Shown here piece by piece: positions 7,340 through 9,423 of a DNA stretch of 25,360 nucleotides. The DNA is taken from the NCBI GenBank assembly GCA_015485755.1, contig WFTD01000118.1, positions 1 to 25,360 on the forward strand. The letters run 5' to 3'. Source of the DNA: Patescibacteria group bacterium (lineage in GTDB: Bacteria; Patescibacteriota; Patescibacteriia; S139-126). The number at the start of each line of letters is the position of its first letter. Positions within the stretch are counted from its first letter, which is position 1. Both the position numbers and the translations under genes were made by a program. Below the pieces are notes generated by a model that was given only the letters and a program-made list of their open reading frames with translations, was not told the DNA's origin and ran no database searches.

Positions 7340-7795
7340 TTAATAAAAAACAGTTCCTTTGCTGTTGATAGTAACAGTCCTGGTTTGGTTATTGGAAGAA
7401 AAAATAATAGCGCCGCTAGACTGAGGTAATCCATAAAACTTACTAAAAACAACCTCAGTTAATCCACTTGCTGTAATATGACCTGAAATATTAAACGACT
7501 CGTCTTTGCTTGCGTTCCTAGTAGCAAAACTATTTCCTTGAAAAATAATAACTTGACCAGGCTCTATCCTCACTCCCCAACTTTGATCGCTGTCAACTGC
7601 CTGAGATAAAAATTGAGCTCGCCGCAATGATTGCACGGTTATTGTAGCTGCTACATCCAAATCATTACTAACTTGCCAAGAGCGAAAAATTGGCAAACCA
7701 ATCCCAGTGATTAAGGCTAAAATAGCAACCGCCAACAAAACCTCAAGCAGAGTGAAACCAAATTTTGATTCAAAAACAGCTTTATTTAATATCAT
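7340..7795 (-). CDS. Minor pilin, FimU/FimT/GspH-like
   Basis: KFG|FTLLEVLLAV signal and C-terminal TVTINSKG pattern; first in the minor pilin series. Confidence 0.82.
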   Translation of the reverse strand: MILNKAVFESKFGFTLLEVLLAVAILALITGIGLPIFRSWQVSNDLDVAATITVQSLRRAQFLSQAVDSDQSWGVRIEPGQVIIFQGNSFATRNASKDESFNISGHITASGLTEVVFSKFYGLPQSSGAIIFSSNNQTRTVTINSKGTVFY

Positions 7796-9423
7796 GGCAA
7801 TACTTTAACATATCTGCCAAACACCCAGCCGCTCTGCTCATCATTTAAAATGATATTGTACCATCCGCTGCGCTCCTCGATATAATCAAATACTTGACCT
7901 GGATTAACTGTGCTAATGATTTTATTGCCAAGGCCAGCTCCTGCCCTAACATTCAAAAAACCAGTTTCTGTGTCTAAAATTTGCAATTGCCCTATCGGGC
8001 CTTTCTCATCTAAAACCGGCGTTTGCTCAACCACGTCAGTTGGCAAGGTTGAGGTTGACAGTTCCAATTTTTTCAATAGTTCAGGCGGTAGAGACGGCTT
8101 TTCTCCATTGACAGTTGGCGGCAGTGGGGCTTTGGTTGGGTTTGTGCGTGGGGTTGATGTTGGCACAGTTGCTGCTGGCTGAGGCGGGCGTTTGACTGGA
8201 GCGGAAACAGGCGGAGGCGGAGGTGGTGTTTTGGGCTGGTTTAGCCCACCAATCAAGCTGTAAATTGGCAAAATCACAGCCAGAGCAACTGCTATTACCC
8301 CCAGCCAAACAATTACCAATAAAATCGGCTCTAAAACTATGGCTAGATTCTTAGTGCTGTTTTCTGTTTTGTTTTCAAAAATACTGCCAATTTTCAACAG
8401 AGTGGCTGACAATTTGCCAGATTGCTCTGCGCTGACAACCATCTGTTGAACTGGGACGGTTATCAATTTGTTTATTTTAGGAAAGGAAGCAAAACTCTTT
8501 TGAAAAGAGTTGCCTTCTTCAATTTTATCGCGCAAATGAACATACAACCTCCGATAAGGAGGAGAAGTGGTGGCTTGATAAAGAGAGGTTAAAGCCCTGG
8601 TTACTGGCAAACCAGCATCCAATAAAGTTCCTAGCAAATAACCAAATCGGGCCAACTCAACTTCGCGAATCAAATTGCGGATGGCTGGTATCTTAAACAA
8701 CAACTCCTGGCCAACAATCTTTGTTTTGGGAAAAATAAATAAAAAATAAACCCCTCCTGCTGTTACAAGAATAAATAACGGCACCACCACAAAACCATAC
8801 CGTCCCAAAAAATTACCAATTGCAATCAAAGCTTTGGTTATAAAAGGCAATTCCAGTTGCAGCTGATTAAATACAGCTGATAATCTTGGCAAAATAAACC
8901 AGGCAATGCCAATGCCTACAATTACAGTGAGTGTTAGTACTATCACAGGGTACATCATGGCTGATTTTATCCGAGAATGAAAATCCCTTTCTTTTTCTTC
9001 TTGTAAGGCTATTACCTGCAAACTCTCGGCCAACTTACCGCTTTCCTCGCCAATTCTAACCAAGGAAATGATATAATCAGGAAAAATATTAACCCTCTCC
9101 AAGGCACTGGATAAAGACGAACCCGCTTCAATATCCTCTTCTAACTCCTCAATAATCGCCCTCATTTTAGGTGATTTGGTTTCTTGTTTGATTGTCTTTA
9201 AGGCAACCAAAAAATCCATACCAGCCGCCAGCAGCATACTTAAATTTTCAACAAAATATTCCTTTTCCTTGCCTAAACCAAAACCAGCAAACAACCCCCA
9301 TCTACGCTTTTTTCTGGTTTTAGGTTTGCCTTTGCTCTTTGGAGGTTTTTTCTTTTTTAAAAAATTTAGGCTAAATACATGTTTAAAGCCAATTTTTTTG
9401 TTTTTGGCTGTCTGGTTTTTCAT
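7792..9423 (-). CDS. pilC: Type IV pilus platform protein PilC (GspF family) with C-terminal Pro-rich linker and SH3b domain
   Basis: Two GspF repeats (ENLSMLLAAG, GEESGKL, SAMMYP; LGTLLDAGLPV, AEQSGKL, LEPILL), three TM segments, then PKTPPPPPPVSAP... and GFLNVRAGAG...GWYNI...SGWVFGRYV. Confidence 0.9.
   Translation of the reverse strand: MKNQTAKNKKIGFKHVFSLNFLKKKKPPKSKGKPKTRKKRRWGLFAGFGLGKEKEYFVENLSMLLAAGMDFLVALKTIKQETKSPKMRAIIEELEEDIEAGSSLSSALERVNIFPDYIISLVRIGEESGKLAESLQVIALQEEKERDFHSRIKSAMMYPVIVLTLTVIVGIGIAWFILPRLSAVFNQLQLELPFITKALIAIGNFLGRYGFVVVPLFILVTAGGVYFLFIFPKTKIVGQELLFKIPAIRNLIREVELARFGYLLGTLLDAGLPVTRALTSLYQATTSPPYRRLYVHLRDKIEEGNSFQKSFASFPKINKLITVPVQQMVVSAEQSGKLSATLLKIGSIFENKTENSTKNLAIVLEPILLVIVWLGVIAVALAVILPIYSLIGGLNQPKTPPPPPPVSAPVKRPPQPAATVPTSTPRTNPTKAPLPPTVNGEKPSLPPELLKKLELSTSTLPTDVVEQTPVLDEKGPIGQLQILDTETGFLNVRAGAGLGNKIISTVNPGQVFDYIEERSGWYNIILNDEQSGWVFGRYVKVLP

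Follow-up and report, generated by a model that had tools for sequence, protein, structure and literature searches.

A PilC platform protein fused to an SH3b domain in Patescibacteria: a conserved, optional tail with a predicted role at the cell wall

The window analyzed here, i.e., the whole stretch of 25,360 nucleotides from a Patescibacteria group bacterium (GenBank assembly GCA_015485755.1, contig WFTD01000118.1, positions 1 to 25,360 of the forward strand), carries a type IV pilus cassette. The platform protein of this cassette, PilC, continues past its third transmembrane (TM) helix into a long linker and a C-terminal bacterial SH3 domain (SH3b). A preliminary description of this DNA had pointed out the fusion and proposed that the motor platform carries its own wall tether. 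The PilC-SH3b fusion is real, widespread in Patescibacteria and undescribed in the literature that we searched, and a role at the wall is predicted from the relatives of the domain. Full-text literature searches found no paper linking PilC or T2SSF with an SH3 domain; many proteins with both Pfam domains (T2SSF and SH3) are already present in public databases.

The PilC-SH3b gene and its product

The gene and the parts of its product, from the N-terminus to the C-terminus, are as follows.

7792..9423 (-): pilC-SH3b gene, 543 codons plus a TGA stop, frame open (list of open reading frames, translation, Pfam)
9274..9423 (-): basic N-terminal region, residues ~1-50, predicted cytoplasmic (charge count; predicted local distance difference test score, pLDDT, below 50 for residues 1-28)
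8887..9255 (-): T2SSF repeat 1, residues 57-179, running into TM1 (~156-178) (Pfam and a family search within the same genome)
8728..8811 (-): TM2, residues ~205-232 (hydropathy; model helix H194-230)
8266..8637 (-): T2SSF repeat 2, residues 263-386, running into TM3 (family search within the same genome)
8245..8343 (-): TM3, residues ~361-393, from which the chain is predicted to exit on the outer side (hydropathy; continuous model helix H338-395)
7996..8235 (-): Pro/Thr/Ser-rich linker of ~80 amino acids, residues 397-476, predicted disordered (pLDDT below 50 over most of 411-472)
7795..7995 (-): SH3b domain with a lead-in strand, residues 477-543 (Pfam SH3_3 core 7804-7959; fold model)

The SH3_3 family (PF08239) was matched at residues 489-540 in a Pfam search of the whole protein (E 4.6e-12, 46.4 bits against a cut-off of 27); the score was 49.3 bits for the tail alone and 51 bits in the scan of the genome. 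We modeled the tail (residues 476-543) with AlphaFold on 92 homologous tails and obtained a seven-stranded structure with a pLDDT of 97.5, and the model of the full-length protein likewise contained a confident all-beta domain at residues 478-542. In Foldseek searches, the tail model matched SH3b domains with TM-scores of 0.72-0.84, root-mean-square deviations of 1.1-2.6 A and 25-29% identity. These included B. subtilis YrvJ (9a7d, 0.84), C. perfringens CPF_0587 (2krs, 0.81) and the phage phiSM101 endolysin Psm (4krt, 0.78), and further matches were CPE1231 (2kt8) and NlpC/P60 enzymes; eukaryotic SH3 domains were clearly poorer matches than bacterial SH3b domains. A profile of the 92 tails searched against the PDB retrieved the Psm phage endolysin (1e-15), NlpC/P60 dipeptidyl-peptidases, a cell-wall hydrolase and an amidase. 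By profile and by modeled fold, the C-terminal domain is thus an SH3b domain, as had been supposed from the translation alone.

The tails have a mean identity of 40% in this domain, with invariant residues R493, W521, G532 and W533. Since these residues are family hallmarks, they do not identify the ligand. The SH3b domains of wall hydrolases (4krt, 2krs, 9a7d and dipeptidyl-peptidase VI, 3pvq/3npf) belong to the same Pfam family and share the fold and the LNVR and GW motifs. In those proteins, the domain targets soluble or secreted enzymes to the wall, whereas the SH3b domain of the window sits, without an attached enzyme, on a polytopic membrane protein that belongs to a motor complex.

The part of the protein that precedes the tail is a true platform protein of the PilC type, with two T2SSF repeats and three TM helices. 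Pfam matched T2SSF (PF00482) in two stretches (161.5 bits against a cut-off of 25.2, E 1.1e-47), and hydropathy placed TM segments at residues ~156-178, ~205-232 and ~361-393. The AlphaFold2 model of the full-length protein, built on 99 homologues, had a mean pLDDT of 82.5 and contained long helices H131-188, H194-230 and H338-395. Its core matched M. xanthus PilC (3jc8, E 5e-11) and EpsF, OutF, TcpE and T. thermophilus PilC domains (TMt 0.73-0.86) in Foldseek. Residues Y158, P159, E365 and P366 are invariant in the 99 homologues; polar-proline pairs of the first and third TM segments line the channel in a trimer model of PulF, where the polar residues are Y168 and E370 (PMC10790770). The two T2SSF repeats, the TM segments, the Tyr-Pro and Glu-Pro pairs, the cytoplasmic folds and the neighboring pilB gene are all shared with canonical PilC, GspF, PulF and EpsF proteins (3jc8; T. 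thermophilus 2whn; Klebsiella PulF). The view that this is an otherwise normal PilC is therefore borne out by Pfam, topology prediction, fold and genomic neighbor.

There are 20 Lys/Arg residues and 2 Asp/Glu residues among the first 56, and such a strongly basic N-terminus combined with three TM segments places the N-terminus inside and the C-terminus outside. This assignment agrees with the published three-TM topology of GspF/PilC (PMC10790770). The tail is thus predicted to lie outside the membrane and not in the cytoplasm, as previously suggested, on the basis of hydropathy, charge bias and the helices of the AlphaFold2 model.

Canonical PilC/GspF proteins end a few residues past TM3, and tail-less members of the orthogroup of the window protein end 0-5 residues past the core. 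In contrast, the window protein adds 147 residues (397-543), i.e., a predicted disordered linker followed by the SH3b domain. The preliminary description was correct in every detail that could be checked: it estimated the extension at ~150 residues, the peptides that it quoted occur as written in the translation, and the interval 7792-8345, to which it assigned the fusion, spans TM3, the linker, the SH3b domain and the stop codon. Pfam assigned only T2SSF and SH3 families to the protein, with no LysM or AMIN domain.

The linker had been described as a proline-rich stalk. This holds for the window protein and its two nearest relatives, which alone have the poly-Pro run in common; the run is encoded by the sole tandem repeat, a 15-nucleotide AGGCGG run at 8209-8223. 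It does not hold across homologues. In 116 of these, the spacer is 30-108 residues long (median 50) and rich in Thr (12.7%), Pro (12.5%), Ser (11.4%) and Glu (10.3%); counted in the same way, from residue 394 to residue 485, the spacer of the window protein has 92 residues and is among the longest. It has also changed more quickly than the remainder of the protein: 14 of the 92 positions differ from a relative with 94% identity. Because the linkers vary between 30 and 108 residues, have this Thr/Pro/Ser/Glu-rich composition and are predicted to be disordered across homologues, the linker is best regarded as a flexible tether, not a rigid stalk, judging by pLDDT and homologue composition.

Genomic context, distribution and evolution of the tail

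The other genes of the cassette are listed below.

11164..11535 (-): receiver-only response regulator (REC), head of the cassette (Pfam)
9430..11154 (-): pilB extension ATPase (MshEN + T2SSE), directly upstream of pilC (Pfam)
4429..7795 (-): five pilin-like genes 3' of pilC, all conserved with pilC (Pfam and synteny)

pilC begins 6 nucleotides past the end of pilB, and its own stop codon shares an ATGA with the start codon of the pilin gene that follows. The pilin N_methyl motif was found by Pfam in four of the five downstream genes, one of which is fused to an LVIVD propeller; the fifth (open reading frame 5004-5408) had no Pfam family match. Other genomes have the same order, REC-pilB-pilC-five pilin-like genes, with or without the tail. 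Among 79 orthologous loci checked, pilB adjoins pilC in 78 and REC is present in 69. As stated in the preliminary description, pilMNO and pilQ are absent from the window by Pfam.

The assembled genome (831 kb, 82% complete) contains two additional pilB-pilC pairs, whose PilC proteins are tail-less, and the tail of the window PilC is its sole SH3_3 domain. Two pilM genes lie elsewhere in the genome, and a weak match to pilN follows one of them. When longer relatives of the PilM of this genome were sought, four long PilM proteins were obtained and none had an SH3 domain, a result that counts for little in either direction. Four PilB-like ATPases, at least two shorter T2SSE-family proteins of PilT length, three PilC and two PilM were counted on contigs C4, C37, C19, C110, C22, C93 and C123; type IV filament machines take an unusually large share of this 0.83-Mb genome. 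No secretin (PF00263) was detected in the 82%-complete assembly by a search that found secretins in six control genomes. The genome encodes two transpeptidase penicillin-binding proteins, so that it can make peptidoglycan and has a wall to bind. Cryo-transmission electron microscopy of groundwater cells of the Candidate Phyla Radiation revealed pili and a surface layer (S-layer) but no outer membrane (10.1101/2020.05.14.094862).

We compared the window protein with its 120 best database matches. An SH3-length tail past TM3 was present in 116 of these 121 proteins, from many Patescibacteria lineages, and more than 100 clusters carry the fusion. The 90%-identity cluster of the window protein includes four members of 543 residues, encoded on separately assembled contigs of 18.6, 20.5, 25.4 and 60.6 kb from different sources. 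An assembly or frameshift artefact was therefore rejected, given these four same-length assemblies, the more than 100 homologues and a stop-free frame; the fusion itself, as first reported, is supported by its homologues.

A mis-binned contig was also considered and rejected: trigger factor, encoded on the same contig (13483-14772), is 47-53% identical to its counterparts in the family, 42-43% in the order and 32-38% in the class. The pilus cassette behaves differently. Neither it nor an orthologue of its PilC was found in the 20 nearest reference genomes (5 from the same family, 3 from the same order and 12 from the same class), which have PilC paralogues at ~30% identity only. As trigger factor tracks taxonomy while the cassette has no orthologue in these relatives, the contig appears correctly binned and the cassette patchy. 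This pattern suggests lateral transfer or repeated loss, i.e., the cassette was either acquired by the window genome or lost in its relatives. Within the phylum sample, the PilC core was closest (61% identity) to that of a genome from a different class.

Of 400 evenly sampled Patescibacteria species, 30 had the PilC orthogroup, and an SH3 tail was found in 10 of the 20 examined; in the family with the heaviest sampling, the fusion was not found (0 of 23 genomes). A scan of 185,579 species genomes yielded 280 with a PilC relative, and the labels of the best 80 of these covered many candidate phyla, including Magasanik-, Doudna-, Moran-, Uhr-, Jackson-, Nomura- and Buchananbacteria and Paceibacteria. 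A query with the tail only against a set of 5.8 billion proteins returned only the two closest relatives, as short queries share too few exact words. When the SH3 profile was searched against 1.84 billion representatives, it gave 21,759 matches; because the ranking was by summed score, the top 150 were SH3 proteins with multiple repeats, and this search is uninformative on architectures.

A tree of the core region was built from 97 rows (94 distinct), including the query and two outgroup paralogues. The tail is present in 60 of the orthologues on this tree and absent from 35; one of these 35 runs into a contig end, so that its state cannot be scored. Tailed and tail-less orthologues are interleaved, with a minimum of six changes forced by well-supported branches and 21 by parsimony. 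A split SH3 gene in place of the fused tail was also considered and rejected, since no separate SH3 gene was found beside pilC at the 35 tail-less loci in the available flanks (up to 6 kb). Because the cassette occurs without the tail in many lineages, the tail is a conserved yet optional accessory of this one type of pilus, which does not depend on it as an anchor. All tails are homologous and have the lead-in strand in common, so that a single gain followed by repeated loss is the likelier history, although the tree is no proof of it.

The same SH3 subtype, as defined by the SH3 profile, was found in 127 of 401 sampled genomes. In a Pfam scan of 20 examples outside PilC, 14 were PEGA proteins with a C-terminal SH3 domain and 2 were polysaccharide deacetylases. 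The PEGA proteins (L049-L068, e.g., L055:792-2390:-, L057:2034-3221:- and L052:2012-3262:-) are 366-542 residues long and have one or two PEGA domains followed by the C-terminal SH3_3. We considered whether these genes are members of pilus loci and rejected this, as there were no pilus genes within ~2 kb. The deacetylases (L150:1848-3314:+ and L157:1125-2543:-, from genomes of family f28) have two SH3_3 domains and then a deacetylase of the peptidoglycan-deacetylase type. That these carriers are envelope proteins supports an extracytoplasmic, wall-associated role of the domain.

Possible roles of the tail

We favor the possibility that the tail is an extracytoplasmic tether through which PilC is held to the wall of its own cell, a secretin-free monoderm, and assign it a probability of about 0.5. 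We infer ligand and function from the relatives of the SH3b domain and from the other carriers of the subtype. In such a mechanism, the PilC chain would continue outside the membrane past TM3 as a flexible spacer and end in the SH3b domain, which would bind a polymer of the own wall, i.e., peptidoglycan or something attached to peptidoglycan. The platform, and hence the PilB motor and the pilus base, would be leashed to a fixed point of the wall. The leash may keep the machine in place beneath its exit site or help it to withstand the forces of retraction and adhesion.

How monoderm type IV pili are held in the wall and pass through it is an acknowledged open question; Pelicic (2019, PMC6916266) describes wall anchoring of these machines as unresolved and speculates on PilO. 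PilC-SH3b is a concrete candidate anchor. The enlarged PilO of S. sanguinis (PMC6916266) is likewise a candidate answer, but it is a different component without a recognised wall-binding domain, whereas the domain of the PilC tail comes from a family known in wall hydrolases.

In diderms, the AMIN domains of PilQ and the LysM domains of TsaP and FimV anchor type IV pili to peptidoglycan. The proposed role is the same, i.e., positioning the pilus machine relative to the wall. The diderm anchors are LysM or AMIN domains on the secretin or a secretin-associated protein, in contrast to the candidate anchor of the window, an SH3b domain on the inner-membrane platform, and the parallel would be one of function, not of homology.

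Several points weigh against a tether to the own wall or qualify it. SH3_3 domains have varied ligands. Of 95 orthologues, 35 do without the tail and have no separate SH3 gene within the available flanks, so the tail is dispensable. By count, the SH3b domain has more acidic than basic residues, which does not suggest simple charge attraction to anionic wall polymers. As pilM genes and a weak match to pilN are present elsewhere in the genome, the tail need not stand in for an alignment complex. Finally, PilC rotates continuously under PilB in some models (PMC6916266); if this is the case, a stable tether would wind up, and binding would need to be weak or transient.

The SH3b domain could instead bind a protein in the envelope or pilus machine of its own cell rather than peptidoglycan, and would then be an arm through which the platform recruits or scaffolds other parts. 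Candidates are the globular domains of pilins close to the pilus base, a partner resembling PilN or PilO and an S-layer or PEGA-type surface protein. The third TM segment lines the central channel in the PulF trimer model, so that the tails would emerge under the pilus base (PMC10790770), and the ATGA overlap couples translation of pilC to that of the next pilin gene. SH3 folds in general bind peptides, and the linker of the window protein has a poly-Pro run; this run is not conserved, however, and the linkers of homologues are Thr/Ser/Glu-rich. The subtype occurs mostly on PEGA proteins, PEGA being a domain associated with the surface layer, but no pilus genes lie within ~2 kb of the PEGA-SH3 genes. 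As the closest relatives of known structure are without exception SH3b domains from wall-acting enzymes or surface proteins, we consider a protein partner rather improbable.

A less likely option, which we regard as improbable to a greater degree, is that the domain holds on to the wall of another cell, a host or prey, and acts as a short-range adhesin at the pilus base after the pilus has pulled the cells together. Patescibacteria typically live as episymbionts and use pili for attachment (10.1101/2020.05.14.094862), and the cassette encodes a propeller-bearing pilin that resembles an adhesin. The 92-residue linker is among the longest of its family, with an estimated contour length of ~30 nm when fully stretched; against this, the median linker of 50 residues and the shortest of 30 are short for crossing the own wall and S-layer, and the tether begins at the cytoplasmic membrane beneath that wall. 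Moreover, Gram-negative hosts, as imaged in 10.1101/2020.05.14.094862, do not expose peptidoglycan. It is very improbable that the tail has no function of its own, whether as neutral domain accretion or as an assembly or frameshift artefact. Its loss has been tolerated many times in the same cassette, but the four independent assemblies, the more than 100 fused clusters and the open frame argue for a genuine protein, and the SH3b domain has been kept at 40% mean identity with its four invariant residues while the linker drifts. The remaining probability is for other possibilities, e.g., a sorting role of the tail.

If the tail does tether PilC to the own wall, stable binding would be hard to reconcile with continuous rotation of PilC, and this would be its most interesting consequence. 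The SH3b tail could then be a stator-like anchor, with the three C-termini of a PilC trimer fixed to the wall and rotation of the platform stopped. We consider this doubtful. If true, pili would be assembled without continuous rotation of PilC, and the natural lineages with and without the tail would provide a test of the rotary-platform model and of monoderm bracing.

Beyond the fusion itself, what is new here is an optional tail on a conserved cassette, with its minimum of six switches, the patchiness of that cassette, the status of the tail as the only SH3_3 domain in the genome and the PEGA and deacetylase carriers. As pili are central to host attachment in Patescibacteria, a tail that has time and again been retained or dropped could be a sign of differing envelopes or lifestyles. 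Its practical value is limited for now, given that the fusion was found in none of the 23 genomes of the most heavily sampled family.

Variant forms among homologues

Several homologues depart from the arrangement in the window. P0018, P0121 and P0022 are PilC homologues with two SH3 domains (SH3_16 + SH3_3) or with a C-terminal region of 145 residues that replaces one SH3 domain. At L136 (3750 onward, plus strand), an open frame of 1723 residues lies 3' of a tail-less pilC and has several weak, repeated matches to the SH3 profile.

Five PilC orthologues of family f28 (L039-L043, in genomes G384, G345, G249, G125 and G320; 37-39% identity) lie in open frames of 729-984 residues. These frames reach ~380-640 residues upstream of the core under translation table 11, and several of the genomes have an in-frame TGA nearby. 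They could reflect an alternative genetic code or N-terminal fusions.

The cassette was also detected in seven metagenome-assembled genomes labelled Gammaproteobacteria, Bdellovibrionales, Pseudomonadales or Acidimicrobiales (L072, L073, L089, L091, L093, L097 and L114; GC content 39-50%). Their labels are doubtful and look like errors of binning or automatic taxonomy. The full cassette is present in six of the seven; in L089, only REC, pilB and the first pilin gene were found beside pilC.

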